Positions 27,358 through 61,405 of a stretch of 64,000 nt of DNA are shown piece after piece. This DNA comes from a virus (taxonomy: Duplodnaviria > Caudoviricetes): positions 1 through 64,000 of the IMG/VR virus record IMGVR_UViG_3300037418_002791. The stretch is one strand, 5' to 3'. The first letter of the stretch is position 1. Each line of letters begins with the position of its first letter. Below the pieces are notes generated by a model that saw nothing but the letters and a program-made list of their open reading frames with translations, made no database searches and had not been told where the DNA came from. The position numbers were made by a program, and so were the translations under genes.

Positions 27358-27401
27358 AAGACCCCCACTCTCGCCGATCGCGGTGAGAGTGGGGGTCTTT
27401 T
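27358..27401. terminator. bidirectional intrinsic terminator
   Basis: AAGACCCCCACTCTC / GAGAGTGGGGGTCTT stem plus T-run, between convergent genes. Confidence 0.85.
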
Positions 27402-27408
27402 CGCGTGT

Positions 27409-27861
27409 CTAGGCGGTTTCCGGCAGTGTCACGCCGGGCGGCAGCCACTCCGGCGGGCCGTCGGCGATCACGACCTTGTGCGGGGTGTCCGGCTTGTAGA
27501 TGTGCTCGAACGGCTGCTTGTCGTCGGAGATCCACGGATCTTTCATGATCATCCGCCCGCACTCGCCGCAATGCTTGTCCGCGATGAGGTATCGCTCCGG
27601 ATGCTTGCGCGCCTGGCTGATCTTGGTGACGGCCTTGCCGAGCCACAGTCCCATGCCCAGCAGCGCGAGGTTGATGGCGTAGGCCACGACGGTGCCCACG
27701 GTCCCGCCGATGCCCATCAGCACGGCCATCACGATGAACATCATGAACCACAGCGCGGTGAAGATCAGTCCGACCTTGATGAAGGTCCACAGGCTGTCCG
27801 CGACGTAGAACGTCAGCAAGATCAGCACGGCGGCTGTGATGAGAGTGGTGGCGGCGAACAT
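27409..27861 (-). CDS. multi-TM membrane protein
   Basis: ATG at 27861; three hydrophobic helices then CGECG. Confidence 0.65.
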   Translation of the reverse strand: MFAATTLITAAVLILLTFYVADSLWTFIKVGLIFTALWFMMFIVMAVLMGIGGTVGTVVAYAINLALLGMGLWLGKAVTKISQARKHPERYLIADKHCGECGRMIMKDPWISDDKQPFEHIYKPDTPHKVVIADGPPEWLPPGVTLPETA

Positions 27862-27978
27862 GGTTGGGCTACCGGCCTTTCGGTGGAGTGAGCGGAATGC
27901 CCGCCCCGCCGGCCCCGCTGTTGTTCTAATTTTGACCTGGGCCGATCTCGGAAGCAACCATCCGAAAACGGACAAAAT

Positions 27979-28196
27979 GGGTGGAGGTTCAGGGTGGAGG
28001 TGGAGGTGGAGGTTTTCCCCGAAACAGCCCGAATCCCAAGAGTTAGTAAAATCTGCTCTATGTGACTCGGGGCACAGAGCTGTAAACCTGCTGGTAGAAA
28101 AGATACTTATACTAACTAAGTATCTATTATTTTACGCGCGCGCGGACGAATTTCGGGTTTGCCCAAAAACCTCCACCTCCACCTCCACCCCTCCAC
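27979..28196. other. replication-origin-like element (copy 1)
   Basis: 25-bp perfect inverted repeat of GGAGGT iterons (27992-28016 / 28166-28190) around an AT-rich core. Confidence 0.6.
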
Positions 28197-28232
28197 GTAA
28201 AGCTCTACTTGAGGGTTGGGGTTGCCCGGCGG

Positions 28233-28418
28233 TCAGCACAGGGTGAGAACCTGTTGCACTTCGACGGCGAGGGTTACCAGCTTGGAATGCGGCATCGTAA
28301 TCAGCCATTGGAGGTCGGTCTCCGGGTCGAGTCCGAATTGCGCGGCATGCTTTACAAGATCGCGCAGGAACTTCATCCCTGGATAGCTGCAGTCTTCACA
28401 CCCCATCATCGAACCCAC
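28233..28418 (-). CDS. hypothetical protein
   Basis: ORF with CxxC in leftward operon. Confidence 0.35.
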   Translation of the reverse strand: MGSMMGCEDCSYPGMKFLRDLVKHAAQFGLDPETDLQWLITMPHSKLVTLAVEVQQVLTLC

Positions 28419-28743
28419 ACCCGTTCTTGCGGTCTGCCCAACCGCTTCGTTGGGCTAGCGAAATAATTACGCCAGCTAAATCTTCGATTGAGCGGACAAC
28501 GTTACCCAAAAAACCGGTCGGTAGCATTTCGATCACATAACACAGTTTGCGCCGGTCAGATGGGGTACCTGACGCATCACCTTCTCGTGCAATTGCATTG
28601 CAAATCGCATCCGCAATCGCATCTGCAAGTACATCTGCAAGTGCAGTGAACGGTGTTAGGCATGACAAAACCCCCGCAGCGAGTGTCGGTTCCCGAACAA
28701 CATTCAATCCGTTGAGCGCGAAGCCCTGCTCGGGTTCGGCCAC
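28396..28743 (-). CDS. hypothetical protein (doubtful)
   Basis: Atypical composition; contains 4-aa repeats ADVL-ADAI-ADAI. Confidence 0.3.
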   Translation of the reverse strand: MAEPEQGFALNGLNVVREPTLAAGVLSCLTPFTALADVLADAIADAICNAIAREGDASGTPSDRRKLCYVIEMLPTGFLGNVVRSIEDLAGVIISLAQRSGWADRKNGCGFDDGV

Positions 28744-28786
28744 CTGATTTGTTGGTTGGGTGCTGTGGGGGTTCTGCCGTTGTGCC

Positions 28787-28972
28787 AGCGGATGAGGTCT
28801 TGCAAGGCAACGCCAGTGAGACTGGAATTGACTACCTCATCCGCTCGCCCGCCGGGGGAGGGGTACGGGTATCACCCGGCGGGACGTTGGGAAGGAAGAC
28901 CCTCGGCCGGACTCCGGCGAAGGGCTGACCGAGGGTCTTCCGCACCAGACATCCTTCTGGGGACATCTGGTG
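28787..28972. ncRNA. candidate structured RNA: four adjacent stem-loops
   Basis: Perfect stems of 12, 9, 13 and 7 bp separated by only 1-10 nt; no credible ORF. Confidence 0.45.
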
Positions 28973-28984
28973 AGTCTTTTGTGG

Positions 28985-29311
28985 TTACGCTCCGGTCAGC
29001 GCGAAACTAATTGCGCACTTCGGGCATTCGGCCTTCGGATGGTCGTGGCCGAGTGCGTTGAGCGCGTTGCGATACATGCGCATCTTGTCGCAGGTGAAGA
29101 CGGTGCAATCGTCATGCACGTGATCGGCGAGTTCGTCATGCAGAGCGTATGGCGAACGCCAGATGGGGTTGTACCACCAGTCGCCCTTGAGTTTCCATTG
29201 CTGGCCGTCCCAGCGGTAACACTTCAACTGCGCCGACAGCGCTTCCTCGAAAGAGGGGCGATCGAAGCGCGGCTCGGACGAATCGTCCTGCGGCTCTTGG
29301 AAGTCGTACAT
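28985..29311 (-). CDS. small His/Cys (putative Zn-binding) protein
   Basis: H..HxxCxxxxC..R..R..L plus GHDHPKAECPKC. Confidence 0.7.
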   Translation of the reverse strand: MYDFQEPQDDSSEPRFDRPSFEEALSAQLKCYRWDGQQWKLKGDWWYNPIWRSPYALHDELADHVHDDCTVFTCDKMRMYRNALNALGHDHPKAECPKCAISFALTGA

Positions 29312-29338
29312 GTGGCCCTCCCTGAATCGACGGGCAGT

Positions 29339-29578
29339 CTAAGCCGAGAACCCGCGGGGCTGAGGCTCCGCATAGGCCGGTGAACATCTGGGGCAGTCGG
29401 ACTTCGGGTGATCGTGCCCGAGTGACCTGAGGGCCTTGCGGTATTCGCGCAGCACCTCGCAGTTGTCTTCGGTGCACCCGCTGTGCAGTTCCTTGTCCAA
29501 CTCTTCGTGCAGCCGGCTGGGTTCGGTATAGACGAGAAAGACTTGGTGCTGAATAGGATTGCCCAACTGCTCACTCAC
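29339..29578 (-). CDS. small His/Cys protein, paralogue of 28985..29311
   Basis: LHSGCTEDNCEVLREYRKALRSLGHDHPKSDCPRC. Confidence 0.7.
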   Translation of the reverse strand: MSEQLGNPIQHQVFLVYTEPSRLHEELDKELHSGCTEDNCEVLREYRKALRSLGHDHPKSDCPRCSPAYAEPQPRGFSA

Positions 29579-29762
29579 GGGCCCTCCCGGAATCCAGGAC
29601 CATCCTCTTCTCGTCGACGAGGGTGTCTCTGGCCTGTCTCTTGAGTCCGCAGATGGTGATGGGGCATTCGAGGTGCAGCTGCATCACTCGATGCGCGAAG
29701 CCGACTTCCATGCGCCCCGGCAGGGCGGTGTGTTCGGTGATCGAGATGCCGAGGTCCAACAT
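29571..29762 (-). CDS. small His/Cys protein
   Basis: AHRVMQLHLECPITICGLKRQAR; RBS GGGAGAGG upstream on minus strand. Confidence 0.7.
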   Translation of the reverse strand: MLDLGISITEHTALPGRMEVGFAHRVMQLHLECPITICGLKRQARDTLVDEKRMVLDSGRARE

Positions 29763-29776
29763 CGTGAACGCCTCTC

Positions 29777-29811
29777 CCGTTTGGTCGTGTGAGGCGACCG
29801 TTTGGTCGTGT
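29777..29811. promoter_or_regulatory. 14-bp direct repeat, candidate operator
   Basis: CCGTTTGGTCGTGT at 29777 and 29798 (21-bp period) in the divergent intergenic region. Confidence 0.5.
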
Positions 29812-29889
29812 CATATGACCATGCGCGTCGGAGGTTGAGTTGTCAAGCGGTACACGGCAATCGATATAAAGCCGACTACGATCGAGGTC

Positions 29890-30525
29890 ATGCCCGATTA
29901 CGGTGAGATCCTGCGTGTGCGACGGCTGGCGCGCGGGCTGGACCAAAAGGACATCGCCGAGGCCGCCGGTGTAGGTCTGCGGACCGTCCAGCGATGGGAG
30001 GACTGCGAGCGCCAGATCGACTTCCCCGACATCGCAATGAAAATCGCGCGCAAGCTCGGACTGACGCTCGACGAGCTTGCCGGCGTTACGCCTATCGGCA
30101 TCGAGCTGTCAGGCGAGTGGCATGCACGTTGGCAGACATGGCGATACGGGCAGCCTGTTATCGACCGCCACCCGACCGCGATCACACAGTCCGGCCCGCG
30201 GCTGGTCATGGATTCCACCGGTGACTACATGTGGCGCGCCGAGACCAGCTTGGTCGGTGACCATCTCGAAGGCATCTACCACTCGATCGAGGTCGGCCGC
30301 GAGTTTCACGGCACGCTGCACCTGTGGCTGGGCGTTCGCACCGATGAGTTTCTGAATGCCGAGGCCGACATGATGATCGGGCACTGGTCGGGAAGTTTCT
30401 TCGACGCGCCGGTGGGAAGTGGCTGGGGAGTCATCGCTCGTGACGGTGACCAGGCGGAACGCATGATCCGACACCTCATCGATCACGGATCTGCGCCACT
30501 TCTGGCGTGGCCTGAGCTACACTGA
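29890..30525 (+). CDS. XRE-family HTH regulator with C-terminal beta-barrel domain
   Basis: LRVRRLARGLDQKDIAEAAGVGLRTVQRWE...LGLTLDEL; beta-strand-rich C-terminus. Confidence 0.85.
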   Translation: MPDYGEILRVRRLARGLDQKDIAEAAGVGLRTVQRWEDCERQIDFPDIAMKIARKLGLTLDELAGVTPIGIELSGEWHARWQTWRYGQPVIDRHPTAITQSGPRLVMDSTGDYMWRAETSLVGDHLEGIYHSIEVGREFHGTLHLWLGVRTDEFLNAEADMMIGHWSGSFFDAPVGSGWGVIARDGDQAERMIRHLIDHGSAPLLAWPELH

Positions 30526-30942: not shown

Positions 30943-31302
30943 TCAGGCGTTCTTCTCCGCGAGGATCTGTAATCGTCGGTTGATTTCGCGGCCGATCTCG
31001 GCCTCGGTGTACTCCGATAGCGGTGTGCGCCGCGCCGAAACCCGTTGTCCCGCTTCCTCGGGAGTGATCAGGTTGGCGGCGACCATTCCATCCAGGAGGG
31101 TGGTGCCCTCCAAAGCCTGAACCTCCGGCGCAGAGACCAACTTGCGGATCTGGTCGATGCCTGGTGCCGAGGTAAGCCCCTGTCGCCACTTCGAGATCGT
31201 GGAAGTTGAAACGCCGGTCTTGCGCGAGAGGGTACCTGCATCCATCCCGGTGCGGTCCAGGATGCTTTCTATCCAGTCACCCCAGGTCGATCCAGTGGTC
31301 AT
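30943..31302 (-). CDS. XRE-family HTH protein, putative immunity repressor
   Basis: LSRKTGVSTSTISKWRQG..PGIDQIRKL; leftward, divergent from the right-arm operon. Confidence 0.75.
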   Translation of the reverse strand: MTTGSTWGDWIESILDRTGMDAGTLSRKTGVSTSTISKWRQGLTSAPGIDQIRKLVSAPEVQALEGTTLLDGMVAANLITPEEAGQRVSARRTPLSEYTEAEIGREINRRLQILAEKNA

Positions 31303-31510
31303 CAGTGTTGTTCCCTCCATACCCAGTCACGGTAGACGGTCGTCCACGGTGGTGCAATAGCTTCGCCGACGACATCGCGCCGGACGACTTGGTGTCCTCG
31401 ATCGTCCTCGATCACAGCGAGATCGGCACTCTCTCCCTGTTGGGAACCGGCGTGTCGGATCTTCAGCAACCTCTCTGCATCTTCCTACCTGCACGTTTGC
31501 GACAATTTAA

Positions 31511-33200: not shown

Positions 33201-33433
33201 GCGGCGACGATGGCGTGGACTTCGCGCTGGGAATCGCCCTGGCGCTGCACGAGCGCTCGTTGGTGACCACCGATGAACTGCTGCGCCAAGGCGATGAGTA
33301 CGGACGCCTGCTTCACGAACTGCGTGAGCGGATCACGGACTACGCCGCCGAATGCGACAGCCGCGCAGTGGCTTTGGACCTTCTTCACATCCTCAACACC
33401 CTCGGTCGGACCGACTCTCCGACCGCCTACTGA
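33197..33433 (+). CDS. hypothetical protein
   Basis: GTGA coupling. Confidence 0.5.
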   Translation: MSGDDGVDFALGIALALHERSLVTTDELLRQGDEYGRLLHELRERITDYAAECDSRAVALDLLHILNTLGRTDSPTAY

Positions 33434-33447
33434 AAAGGAACGATCCG

Positions 33448-34302
33448 ATGACTACCAAACTGTTCGACGCCAACCATGTCCCTGCCTCTTTCGAGCCCGA
33501 GGTGGTGATGGTCGACGCCCCGAAGGCTCGCGAGTGGCTGGTGAAAAACATTCGTAACAGGCCGATTTCGAACGCCGCCGTCTCTCGCTACAAGGCCGAC
33601 ATGGAGTCCGGCCTCTGGCGGTTTGCCGCCGACCCGATCCGCTTCGACTATCAGGGCAATCTGATCGACGGACAGCACCGTCTGTCTGCTATCGCCACGG
33701 CCAAGCAGGGCACGGTGTTGCCGATGCTGGTTGTGTACGGACTCGAGTCCGAAGCCCAGCTGGTGATGGACCAGGGTCGCAAACGCGATGCGGGACAACA
33801 GTTGGCAATGTTGGGCTACAAGCACGCGCCGGCCATCGCCGCCGGTGCACGCCTTCTGATCCTGTGGCAGTCCAGCAACCTGTTCGGTGACGGTGCCAAG
33901 ACCAGCCGGATCACCGCGCCGATGATCCAGGAGTGGGTCATCGTCCACCCCGAACTGGTTCGGGTCGTCAACGATCACCCGCACTTCATCAAGACCCTCG
34001 GCGCTCGCCCGTCGGTCACGCTGGCCTTCCTGTTCAAGGTTGCCGCTCAGCGCAAGAGCCTGGCGATCGAGTTCTTCGATCTGCTGCACGACCGCAGCGA
34101 GTTGCCGAAGGGCTCGCCGATCCTGGCGCTGGACAACAAGTTCCGCGACTACGACAGCTCGGCCGCCACGATCGAGTACCAGCGCGATCAGCTGGGCTAC
34201 TACCTGCTGGCCTGGAACGCCTGGATCGATCGCCGGTCGCTGTCCAAGTTGCAGAAGCCCAAGGGCGGCTGGACCTCTCGCAACTTCCCGGAGCCGAAGT
34301 GA
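33448..34302 (+). CDS. ParB-like / DGQHR-motif protein
   Basis: NRPIS..VSRY..DM..G.W..IRFD..GNLIDGQHRLSAI. Confidence 0.75.
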   Translation: MTTKLFDANHVPASFEPEVVMVDAPKAREWLVKNIRNRPISNAAVSRYKADMESGLWRFAADPIRFDYQGNLIDGQHRLSAIATAKQGTVLPMLVVYGLESEAQLVMDQGRKRDAGQQLAMLGYKHAPAIAAGARLLILWQSSNLFGDGAKTSRITAPMIQEWVIVHPELVRVVNDHPHFIKTLGARPSVTLAFLFKVAAQRKSLAIEFFDLLHDRSELPKGSPILALDNKFRDYDSSAATIEYQRDQLGYYLLAWNAWIDRRSLSKLQKPKGGWTSRNFPEPK

Positions 34303-57836: not shown

Positions 57837-58178
57837 ATGAACAAGACGCAGCGCGTGCTCACCGGCGCACTCAACCTGCTCAACGGCGGCGAGAACTGGC
57901 TCAAGGGTCGGTATCACGATGGCGAGGATCTGGCCGACCCGTTGGGCGGCACCTGCTACTGCACGATCGGCGCCGTGGATCACGTCAACACCGTGGCGCA
58001 TCTGCACGACCCTGAGGCGCGCGAGACCGTATTCGCCGAGGCATTCGAGCGGCTGGACCGAGCGGCCATGGAGATGGGCTTTCGCTCCGCGGTGCGGCTG
58101 AACGATCACGAGAGCACCGAATTCCCGTTGGTGCGCGAGATGTTCACCAAGGCAATCGAATTGGCGGCCCTCAAGTGA
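57837..58178 (+). CDS. hypothetical protein, paralogue family B
   Basis: NWLKG..CYCTIGAV..LND..TEFPLVREMFTKAIELAA. Confidence 0.7.
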   Translation: MNKTQRVLTGALNLLNGGENWLKGRYHDGEDLADPLGGTCYCTIGAVDHVNTVAHLHDPEARETVFAEAFERLDRAAMEMGFRSAVRLNDHESTEFPLVREMFTKAIELAALK

Positions 58179-58477
58179 ACGAGACGCAGCGCATCCTGGC
58201 CGACGCCCTCGACCTGCTCAACGGTGGCCAGAACTGGATCAAGGGTGCCTACTCCGACTGGTCCGATGGCAAGCGGAGCTACTGCTCGCTCGGCGCGGTC
58301 GATGCGGCGCTCTACCGCTTGCGCGACTACTCCAGCAATCCATGGCTACCCCTGACCGAAGCGGCAATCGCTGTCGCTAACCGGTCGGTTGTCGGACTGA
58401 ACGACGATGACGACACCGAGTTCCCGTTGATCGAGCAGATGTTCACCAAGGCAATCGAACTAGCGGCCGGTGAGTGA
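58175..58477 (+). CDS. hypothetical protein, paralogue family B
   Basis: NWIKG..YCSLGAV..LND..TEFPLIEQMFTKAIELAA. Confidence 0.7.
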   Translation: MNETQRILADALDLLNGGQNWIKGAYSDWSDGKRSYCSLGAVDAALYRLRDYSSNPWLPLTEAAIAVANRSVVGLNDDDDTEFPLIEQMFTKAIELAAGE

Positions 58478-58581: not shown

Positions 58582-61023
58582 ATGACGAGGAGTGAAGTGT
58601 CCGGCTACGCAGAATGGGCACCGCGGTATTGGGATCTGGGATGGAAAGCGCCGCTGCCGATCGCTCCCAACAGCAAAGGGCCCTGCCCGGAGGGGTGGAC
58701 CGGATACGGCGGCAAATGGCCGAGCTACGCCGATGTCATGGCGTGGGCCGAGGATTCGCCGAACGCCTCCGTAGCGCTGCGGGTTCCGCCGGGTGTGGTG
58801 GGCATCGACGTCGACAACTACGTCAAGAACGGCAAGATGAAGCTGGGGGCGCGCACCCTCGCCCACGCCATCGACCTGTGGGGCGAACTGCCGCCGACCT
58901 GGGCGAGCACGTCACGCACCGACGGCATCAGCGGCATCCGGCTGTTCCGGGTGCCGGACAAGACCCGGCTGGTCACCAAGCTGGGGTTCGACCTGGGCGA
59001 CGGCACGCGAATCAGCGACATCGAGGTCATCCAGTGGTACCACCGCTACATGGTGGTCGGCCCGTCGGTGAACCCCGACACCGGCCGGCAGTACCAGTGG
59101 ATGACCACCGGCGATCTGATGTGGGCGGCCGAACCGCGCATCGAGGATCTGGCGTGGCTGCCACAGTCGTGGCTCGACGGGATGGCCGCACCCGAGGCCG
59201 AGGACGTCTCCGGAGTCGAGGTCGACGTGCCGGAGCTGCTGAAGTCGATGCCCGCGGGGCCGATGGACGCCTCGGTGCACGAACGCCTCGACGAGGCGAT
59301 CCGCGATCTCGACGACAGCGGCTCACGTCATGACACCACGCTGCAGCATGTGATGGCGCTGCTGCGCTTCGCCGAGCGCGGAGACATGGGTGTGCCGCGC
59401 GCGCTGAACATCTTGGCGAAGGCGTTCGCCGGCACGGTGAGCACCGATCGGCCCGGCGCCGAGGCCGAGTTCTGGCGGATGGTCACCAACCAGCGTGGGT
59501 GGCAGCTGCTTGCGCAGGACCCGAGCGAATCCAACGTCGAAGAGGTCGACCTCGAGGCGTTCAGTCGCGAGATCCAGGCGCGGCGCGAGAAGGGCGACGA
59601 GGAATGTTCGGGTAATTCGGATGTTCGGTTGACCGCCGAACATGGCAATAACCCGAACATCGCCGACGACTTCAGCACGTCGCACGCCTTGGCCGAAGCG
59701 GGGCCCGGGTGGCGTGACATCGCCTCGGCCAACGGATTCGACTCTGACGACGAACCGGAGGCCGGCGAGGTCGATCCGTTCGAAGAGTTCTGGTTCACCC
59801 GCCCGGTACTCGAGCAGATCCGGCAATGGGCGTTCGCGCGGATGTGCTCGCCGTGGGCGGTGCTGGGCGTGGTGCTCGCTCGCACACTCGCCACGGTCCC
59901 GCCGTGGGTGACGCTGCCTCCGCTGATCGGCGGCAAGGGCTCGCTCAACTTCTTCGTCGCGCTTGTCGGGCGAAGTGGCGGAGGCAAAGGCGCGGCCGAA
60001 TCGTGTGCGGCCGAGGTGCTGCCGGTGGAGGTCTACACCGTGCCGGCGGGATCGGGCGAGGGACTGGCGCACCAGTACGCGCACATGGAGAAGGGCTCGC
60101 AGGTCATCGACCGGACGAGTGTGTTGTTCTCGGTGCCCGAGGTCGACACACTCAACGCCCTCGGCGGGCGGACCGGCTCGACGATCATGAGCAAGTTGCG
60201 CGAGGCGTTCTCCGGCGAAGAACTCGGGTTCGGGTACGCCGATGCGGCCAAGCGCATTCGGTTGGGCAAGCACGGCTACCGGCTGTGCATGGTGGTGGGC
60301 GTGCAGCCGACGCGGGCCGGCTCGCTGCTCTCGGATGCCGCAGGCGGTACTCCGCAGCGGTTCGTCTGGCTGCCGGCGACCGACCCCGCGATCACGCTGC
60401 ACGGCCGTCCCGACGTCCCGGCGCCGGTGCACATCTACGAGGAGCGGCACTGGGCCGGCGGCCCGACGACGATCCGGATACCGGCCGAGGCGCGTGAGGA
60501 GATTCTGCAAGCGCACGTCGATCGGCAGCAGGGAAAAGGCGACGCACTCGACGGGCACGCATTGTTTGTGCGCGAGAAAGTGGCCTTCGCGCTGGCGGTC
60601 CTCGACAACAGGGAATATGTCGACGAGGACGACTGGTATTTGTCGGGAATCGTTATGGAAATGTCGAATTCTACCCGCGAACAAATCGAATTCGAATTGC
60701 GCAAAGTCGCAATGAAGGAAGACGAGGATCGCGGGCAGTCCATCGGCCGGCAGCGGGCGGTGGCGGACGAGGTTGTCAATTCCAAGAAAATCCAAACCGT
60801 GTCCGACGGAATTGTCCGTGCGCTGCTGCGCGGAGTCGACAATCTCTACGAGGTTCGCAAGTCGATCTGGTCCAAGAACCGCGACTGGTTCGAGGACGCG
60901 ATGCGCGACCTGATCGCCTCGGGGATGGTCGTTGTCGAGGAGGGTCGAGTCACCCTGACTCAACTTGGACAGTTGTCCACAACGCAGTCGGGCGTGTCGC
61001 CCAAACCGAAGGCCGGTGCGTAG
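58582..61023 (+). CDS. bifunctional primase/polymerase fused to an NTPase/helicase domain
   Basis: K.PC..GW, VVGIDVD, T..GG-like SRTDG..LFR, YMVVGPS; Walker A GRSGGGKG; LREAFSGE. Confidence 0.9.
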   Translation: MTRSEVSGYAEWAPRYWDLGWKAPLPIAPNSKGPCPEGWTGYGGKWPSYADVMAWAEDSPNASVALRVPPGVVGIDVDNYVKNGKMKLGARTLAHAIDLWGELPPTWASTSRTDGISGIRLFRVPDKTRLVTKLGFDLGDGTRISDIEVIQWYHRYMVVGPSVNPDTGRQYQWMTTGDLMWAAEPRIEDLAWLPQSWLDGMAAPEAEDVSGVEVDVPELLKSMPAGPMDASVHERLDEAIRDLDDSGSRHDTTLQHVMALLRFAERGDMGVPRALNILAKAFAGTVSTDRPGAEAEFWRMVTNQRGWQLLAQDPSESNVEEVDLEAFSREIQARREKGDEECSGNSDVRLTAEHGNNPNIADDFSTSHALAEAGPGWRDIASANGFDSDDEPEAGEVDPFEEFWFTRPVLEQIRQWAFARMCSPWAVLGVVLARTLATVPPWVTLPPLIGGKGSLNFFVALVGRSGGGKGAAESCAAEVLPVEVYTVPAGSGEGLAHQYAHMEKGSQVIDRTSVLFSVPEVDTLNALGGRTGSTIMSKLREAFSGEELGFGYADAAKRIRLGKHGYRLCMVVGVQPTRAGSLLSDAAGGTPQRFVWLPATDPAITLHGRPDVPAPVHIYEERHWAGGPTTIRIPAEAREEILQAHVDRQQGKGDALDGHALFVREKVAFALAVLDNREYVDEDDWYLSGIVMEMSNSTREQIEFELRKVAMKEDEDRGQSIGRQRAVADEVVNSKKIQTVSDGIVRALLRGVDNLYEVRKSIWSKNRDWFEDAMRDLIASGMVVVEEGRVTLTQLGQLSTTQSGVSPKPKAGA

Positions 61024-61088: not shown

Positions 61089-61405
61089 AAAAACCTCCAC
61101 CTCCACCCCGAACCTCCCCCAATGGTAGCGCTGTTCAGAGGCGATTTTTGGTGGGTGGAGGTGGAGGGTGGAGGTTTTCGGCGAAACACAAAATTTCGGG
61201 GAGACTAGTTAACGAAAAGCTAAGTAAGGTAAGGATATACTAACTAAAAATCTCTCTATATATACACGCGCGAAGCGGCTCGAAATTTTTTTGTCACGGG
61301 GAAAACCTCCACCCTCCACCTCCACCCCCCTAAAACCGCCTCTGACCTGCGGATCTATTGGGGGAGGTTGCACCTCCACCCCCCGATAAAACCTCCACCC
61401 TCCCC
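61089..61405. other. replication-origin-like element (copy 2)
   Basis: 26-bp perfect inverted repeat (61153-61178 / 61302-61327) plus extra ACCTCCACC iterons around an AT-rich core, directly after the primase gene. Confidence 0.7.

Follow-up and report, generated by a model that had tools for sequence, protein, structure and literature searches.

Why would a phage genome carry, at a site without a replication gene, a second copy of the origin-type element that adjoins its primase-polymerase gene, and could this orphan copy itself act as an origin? The question was raised by two palindromic iteron elements, termed here E1 and E2, in a virus record of 75,740 bp that is rated complete by CheckV; the stretch analysed, referred to as the window, comprises bases 1–64000 of that record. 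The whole genome has a GC content of 63%, its large terminase is 66% identical to those of Cluster E mycobacteriophages, and the gene at 58582–61023 has its best matches among Gordonia phages (45%) and Cluster O mycobacteriophages (38%), in their "DNA primase/polymerase". To our knowledge, the replication origins of actinobacteriophages are almost unmapped.

E1 was delimited by inverted-repeat and iteron scans, and its parts are as follows.

27979–28196, no strand: whole of E1, a palindromic element of origin type
27933–27939, + strand: TGACCTG flank motif beside E1 (motif scan)
27992–28016, + strand: left arm of E1, three overlapping GGTGGA(GG) iterons with TTTT at the end, 25 nt, 100% complementary
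28017–28165, no strand: core of E1, 46% GC, a candidate DNA-unwinding element (AT-window scan)
28108–28119, + strand: core motif TATACTAACTAA, common to E2 (motif scan)
28166–28190, − strand: right arm of E1, exact reverse complement of the left arm (inverted-repeat scan)

The arms form a perfect 25-nt inverted repeat with 149 nt between them and are bordered by U/T runs. One extra GTGGAGG unit lies outside each arm (27980–27988 on the + strand, 28190–28196 on the − strand), giving four + units on the left and four − units on the right, in opposite orientation. After TATACTAACTAA the core continues with a CG tract at 28135–28145 and then GAATTT at 28148–28153, and the 40-nt window starting at 28095, with 33 of its 40 positions A or T, is the most AT-rich of the genome. 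Folded as single-stranded DNA, E1 reached −54.8 kcal/mol (z = −8.9 against shuffles), and no shuffled sequence was as stable.

The corresponding parts of E2, together with the gene that precedes it, were identified as listed below.

58582–61023, + strand: initiator gene, with an AEP prim-pol domain (residues 14–177), a predicted MCM-type AAA+ ATPase (405–705) and a predicted C-terminal winged helix (about 730–794) (Pfam, AlphaFold (AF2) and fold comparison)
61089–61405, no strand: whole of E2, a palindromic element of origin type that starts 66 bp past the initiator stop (61023); position conserved in relatives
61090–61120, − strand: outer left iteron block (repeat scans)
61153–61178, + strand: central left arm, 26 nt, 25/26 identical to the left arm of E1 (direct reading and alignment)
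61179–61301, no strand: core of E2, 41% GC, with TATACTAACTAA at 61236–61247 (AT-window and motif scans)
61302–61327, − strand: central right arm, 26 nt, exactly complementary to the left one (direct reading and alignment)
61361–61405, no strand: outer right iteron block with a single unit on the + strand and three on the − strand (iteron scan)

Around the E2 core there are three + and three − iterons in addition to the outer blocks, and the central arms are nested in an 86-nt palindrome (61111–61196 and 61284–61369) that is 83% complementary. TGACCTG occurs at 61343–61349, just ahead of the outer right block. The single-stranded DNA fold of E2 reached −79.9 kcal/mol (z = −8.4 against shuffles), again with no shuffle as stable.

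An initial annotation of this DNA had proposed that the two elements share one architecture, with perfect inverted arms of iterons around an AT-rich core, and this was confirmed for both, the arms measuring 25 and 26 nt. Its further claim, that the cores share a motif and, after it, a CGCGCG tract and GAA(A)TTT, also held, the shared motif being the 12-mer TATACTAACTAA, which occurs genome-wide at 28108 and 61236 only. The series has an identical absolute orientation in both cores, yet the directions of transcription around E1 and E2 are opposite. Across the whole 75,740-bp genome, E1 and E2 are the sole two clusters of the GGTGGAGG repeat: 17 of the 24 GGTGGAGG sites and all six GGAGGTTTT sites fall inside them, as do seven of the eight occurrences of the 14-mer GGTGGAGGTGGAGG with at most one mismatch, for which 0.01 would be expected. 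The genome's two most AT-rich windows of 40, 60 and 100 nt likewise lie in the two cores. The presence of a second copy of the E2-type element at E1 is confirmed.

The two copies are alike in some parts and not in others. Their arms are identical at 25 of 26 positions, whereas outside one conserved block the cores are 59% identical, against a shuffled null of 52 ± 2%, which suggests, as far as an alignment can, that the arms and the core block were maintained while the remainder drifted. Since nearly identical arms accompany near-random cores, E1 appears to be neither a fresh copy nor a decaying relic. The elements are 33.2 kb apart, and the other arc of the circularised genome is 42.5 kb, placing them almost opposite each other.

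Searches outside this genome returned little. The E1 and E2 regions had no blastn match among GenBank phages. Scans of IMG/VR with exact patterns found a sibling contig, G001, all other matches being Gly-rich coding repeats of low GC content or ribosome-binding sites that face each other, and a scan of IMG/VR with the core motif found G001 alone. The sole match to the E1/E2 pattern in GTDB genomes (L250:4076–4235) comes from the end of a 4.3-kb MAG contig, where a long fold-back is most likely an unrelated assembly artefact. Within the genome, the 10-mer CTGACCTGCG at 61342 is also present at the left genome end (70) and at the end of the integrase gene (66903). Cumulative GC skew has its minimum at 27375 and its maximum at 64215, 0.6 and 3 kb from E1 and E2, respectively, and nearly opposite on the circle. 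GC skew was rejected as evidence for origins: the cumulative minimum at 27,375 is a shallow plateau, and in Gordonia phage Jojo24 the skew is monotonic and unrelated to its origin.

The protein encoded beside E2 was examined by profile and fold comparison. Pfam recognised the N-terminal Prim-Pol domain only (PF09250), and a profile search against PDB sequences returned nothing. The AlphaFold model has a pLDDT of 85; in this predicted fold, residues 405–705 align with MCM structures (Z about 16, rmsd 4.2 Å over 258 residues), and an earlier assignment to the SF3 helicases was dropped when the fold search pointed to an MCM-type ATPase. When the last 120 residues were modelled by themselves (pLDDT 90), they matched winged-helix domains only: the Rpa2 winged helix came first (Z 9.4, rmsd 1.8 Å, 62 residues), the best 50 matches are all winged helices, including the MCM6 WHD, and the weak Foldseek matches are winged helices also. 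As modelled, the architecture of the initiator is that of the SaPI/PICI Rep-ori and pRN1 ORF904 systems, whose origins have been defined by experiment. Directly upstream of the initiator gene, 57837–58477 encodes two tandem DUF6197 paralogues.

The initial annotation had likened E2, abutting the prim-pol gene, to a normal phage origin. Relatives of the helicase half of the protein were collected from 80 metagenome loci and 80 IMG/VR loci, of which 69 and 73, respectively, had enough downstream DNA to be counted, and at least four copies, on both strands, of one 7-mer were sought within 300–320 bp past the stop codon. Such repeats were present at 53/69 metagenome and 45/73 IMG/VR loci, as against 6% of control windows from the same loci, so that the comparison with a phage origin is supported. 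In the usual layout, two or three iterons starting no more than about 30 bp past the stop are followed by a core and a mirror-image cluster; the clusters are spaced about 100–130 nt apart, and the core has a median length of 101 nt and 52% GC. The same iteron-core-iteron arrangement was found in Gordonia phages Jojo24 (inside annotated gene 54) and BetterKatz (in the gap of 268 bp that follows gene 70) and in the Mycobacterium abscessus prophage prophiGD12-2 (inside annotated gene 33); at the position after the helicase gene, Cluster O phages have no such element. Judging from the sequences, the two annotated genes that overlie origin elements, Jojo24 gene 54 (L103:6768–6998) and prophiGD12-2 gene 33 (L248:3760–4011), are probably false gene calls. 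Because E2 agrees both with sequence-level criteria for origins and with this family-wide layout, it can be regarded as a standard origin of a known type, and the designation of E2, and by extension E1, as origin-type is well supported at the level of sequence. A literature search, limited and therefore not proof, found no description of this origin type in actinobacteriophages.

The iterons themselves vary by lineage (GGGGTGGAC, GGTGGCCA, GGGTGTAC, CATGTACA, GTCCAACA and others), and this change of iteron sequence with helicase lineage provides indirect support for specific binding between initiator and iteron. Some distant lineages, for example L186, L243 and the L304–L313 proviruses, use GGGGTGGAG or GGTGGAGG; since helicases that are 38% identical occur with the same GGTGGAGG iteron, iteron identity does not simply track protein identity. 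At the IMG/VR proviruses with these 38%-identical helicases (L304, L305, L307, L309, L312, L313 and L329), the repeats take the form of GGTGGAGG-CG-CCTCCACC palindromes. The geometry differs too: the iterons of E1 and E2 face the core, while most relatives have clusters that are themselves small palindromes. CTAACTA motifs, related to the core motif of E1 and E2, recur in the nearest relatives, within the cores of Jojo24 and L265. TGACCWG or its complement CWGGTCA stands centrally (at about position 43) in 19 of 50 relatives' cores, 6.4 times background (L181, L185, L198, L201, L207, L215, L217, L224, L231, L244, L103 and others), and TGACCTG flanks both elements in the present phage; a role as a host-factor or priming site is possible.

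How often does a second copy occur? Exactly one iteron cluster was found in each of 18 whole or near-whole relatives (Jojo24, BetterKatz, prophiGD12-2, G002–G004, G005, G006, G007–G009, G010, G011, G012 and G013–G016), 15 of which are at least 90% complete; the count leaves out P0001 and P0002, whose initiators are 98% and 74% identical. Within the flanks of the 53 metagenome and 45 IMG/VR loci with at least four iterons there was no second cluster; the one extra cluster recorded belongs to L280, a locus with only three copies of a weak 7-mer. A second cluster is thus exceptional in this family, and E1 unusual. The initial annotation had suggested looking for two copies in homologous phages, and the outcome is divided: E1 is absent from the 18 whole relatives and present in the near-identical sibling G001 (95% over 8.4 kb), which alone shares it and whose contig stops before E2. 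G001 is nearly identical to this phage across the whole 2.5 kb around E1, and since the flanks are as identical as E1 itself, the pair gives no evidence of selection on E1. As none of the 18 relatives has a second copy, this replication system can clearly do without a second site.

E1 is intergenic, between two minus-strand genes, at a mosaic junction where the late operon meets leftward genes: rightward late genes extend to 27328 and are followed by a leftward block (27409–29946), HTH regulators and a long rightward early arm. The relevant neighbours, identified by gene and family scans, are the following.

27409–27862, − strand: predicted membrane protein of 151 aa, no family match, downstream of E1
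28233–28418, − strand: 61-aa ORF upstream of E1, without a family match or similarity to the initiator
29890–30525, + strand: XRE-type HTH regulator gene
30943–31320, − strand: repressor-like HTH gene (PF01381; phrog_3949 and phrog_5301, transcriptional repressor)
65509–66906 of the genome, beyond the window (L249:1509–2906): tyrosine integrase gene (PF00589, score 33.3 bits, cut-off 27.1)

Neither gene and family scans nor tblastn of 121 initiator homologues against 26–36 kb found a replication gene, or what is left of one, within several kilobases of E1, and the description of E1 as an orphan was therefore upheld. The suggestion that it occupies the otherwise empty place of an integrase and attP was not, since the genome does encode a tyrosine integrase, with candidate arm-type repeats. 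These are three or four (S)TTTCAC(S) repeats just after the integrase gene (L249:2980–3120) that resemble arm-type attP sites. E1 was accordingly rejected as attP, with the integrase 37 kb away and the candidate repeats beside the integrase instead. It was also rejected as a parABS site, because a ParA-type Walker A motif is absent from all long ORFs of the genome. The lysogeny control region, with the repressor-like gene, is about 3 kb to the right of E1, and farther on the product of 33352–34302 has an uncharacterised PHROG as its sole match. Relative to G001, the interval 29756–30505, which covers the HTH regulator gene, is about 23% divergent while 26–28.5 kb is nearly identical, and from the sequences this looks like an immunity-type module swap.

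On balance we lean towards a model in which the winged helix of the initiator binds the iterons at both sites and the protein loads itself there; E2 would be the ancestral origin, and E1 would provide a second loading site, probably a second origin. [quoted passage not shown] What the analysis establishes is the anatomy of the two sites, their uniqueness in the genome, the association of this helicase with such elements across the family, the predicted protein folds and the copy count of one against two; we infer binding, core melting and firing from analogy with related systems. Apart from its position, E1 follows the rules for origins, with four opposed iterons per side, an AT-rich core and a stable fold, which supports its interpretation as an origin module. 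A bolder version, to which we assign a small probability, is that E1 and E2 are a coupled pair serving one self-loading MCM-like initiator, either firing together or being bridged by hexamers so that one controls the other; no two-site arrangement for this class of initiator was found in the literature consulted or among the 18 relatives.

The main alternative, which we regard as rather unlikely, is that E1 binds the initiator and does not fire, acting as an enhancer like crr of P4, as a handcuffing partner of E2 or as a titration sink. The iterons of E1 are the same as those of E2, all relatives work with one site, and phage P4 needs a second iteron region, crr; in SPP1, G38P binds two sites similarly and theta replication starts at oriL (PMC5737612). 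What such a reading leaves over is the core, for E1 has kept a full AT-rich core and the shared motif, neither of which a mere binding sink would need. It is more doubtful that E1 is a functionless or selfish duplicate, either a recombination relic or a MITE-like copy of the origin. Its long terminal inverted repeats, its restriction to this lineage and its place at the mosaic junction would all suit a duplicate, and inverted repeats are one property of MITEs; the others were not seen, as no target-site duplication is visible beside E1 and the genome holds just two copies, with no further ones in IMG/VR or GTDB genomes except in the sibling. Perfect arms around a near-random core are moreover unexpected for a decaying relic.

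Action through RNA or transcription, as a terminating, insulating or RNase III-type processed hairpin or as a pair of operators bound by a repressor, is in our estimation a slim prospect. Its position between two minus-strand genes, the very stable fold and the U/T runs at the arms could all be read in this way, but the promoter and terminator scan found no terminator-like or sigma-70-like site in E1, Rfam and tRNA scans gave no Rfam match at gathering score and no tRNA, the core has the same orientation at E1 and E2 despite opposite transcription, and the family-wide repeats after the initiator gene would be left unexplained. Least probable of all, and scarcely credible to us, is a separate origin used solely by an extrachromosomal, plasmid-like prophage, which the initial annotation had offered as one role for E1. 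The location does correspond to that in Cluster A mycobacteriophages lacking an integrase, whose prophage origins map to a region beside the virion tail genes (PMC7157519); however, the tyrosine integrase and the repeat motifs that follow it, together with the missing ParA-type Walker A, remove the main premise of that proposal, and the iterons of E1 are the same as those of the initiator-linked E2.

The layout can be expressed as a search rule: directly 3′ of a prim-pol/MCM-like gene, look for two iteron clusters in inverted orientation with a core of about 100 nt between them. This rule could be checked on a large collection of phages and prophages from the genera Mycobacterium, Gordonia, Rhodococcus and Nocardia, and it flags probable false gene calls over origins in GenBank records. 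A duplicated origin is in addition a natural experiment on the ability of a self-loading helicase to work from two sites of the same replicon, and E1 poses the question of whether the gain is faster replication, control of copy number or titration of the initiator only. A minimal origin with its initiator could serve as a replicon for actinobacterial vectors.

The closest parallels in organisation are the origins of phage satellites. In SaPIs, rep is followed directly by an origin with six to twelve penta- or hexanucleotide iterons, which are read by the Rep winged helix; a central AT-rich region has at least two of them on either side, in opposite directions. Rep2 is an MCM-type (SF6) ATPase, and SaPI5 has a fusion of primase and helicase (PMC9371898). 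Origins of Gram-negative PICIs are described as "always" having an AT-rich region with one set of iterons on either side (PMC6092414). The likeness to SaPI1, SaPI2/SaPIbov1, SaPI5 and the Escherichia coli PICIs lies in the inverted iteron sets with an AT-rich centre, 3′ of rep (PMC9371898, PMC6092414), and in a helicase that is itself the initiator and has a C-terminal winged helix, here a predicted one. E2 is directly 3′ of the initiator gene, both elements have at least two opposed iterons per side, and the protein has a predicted hexameric-helicase ATPase and winged helix; E1 departs from the SaPI/PICI-type rule that iterons are directly downstream of the initiator ORF. The satellites belong to Firmicutes and enterobacteria whereas the present virus is an actinophage, sequence similarity is not detectable, and SaPIs are described with one origin, while here a second, orphan copy lies 33 kb off.

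A parallel with a large hairpin is pRN1, whose origin is a stem-loop (21-nt stem, 58-nt loop) 3′ of the ORF904 gene that is sufficient for replication and works when relocated; ORF904 is an AEP-helicase-winged-helix protein, and a similar stem-loop follows the gene for its homologue in Bordetella phage BIP-1 (PMC4234260). The present phage shares with pRN1 a protein combining AEP, helicase and, by prediction, winged helix, as well as a large stem-loop downstream of its own gene, and both E1 and E2 fold into large, stable structures of this kind. It differs in that pRN1 has an SF3 helicase and no recognised iterons, whereas here the ATPase is MCM-like, the stems are built of iterons and the loop measures 123–149 nt.

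For two sites served by one protein, SPP1 and P4 are the systems to compare. [quoted passage not shown] G38P differs in being a replisome organiser without AAA+ that recruits a separate helicase, and its sites consist of AB boxes beside a DUE and form no palindrome. The alpha protein of P4 is a multifunctional primase-helicase, with a Toprim-type primase and an SF3 helicase, that acts on octamer iterons at ori and at a second cis region, crr, which lies 4.5 kb from ori and is required. Its winged helix binds the origin repeats (PMC4234260). P4 resembles the present system in having a primase-helicase with a C-terminal winged helix, a predicted one in this phage, and iterons both at the origin and in a second cis region, but crr is indispensable to P4, whereas a single site is enough for the relatives of this phage. 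Taken together, oriL/oriR of SPP1 and ori/crr of P4 indicate that both outcomes, a second site that fires and one that does not, exist in nature.
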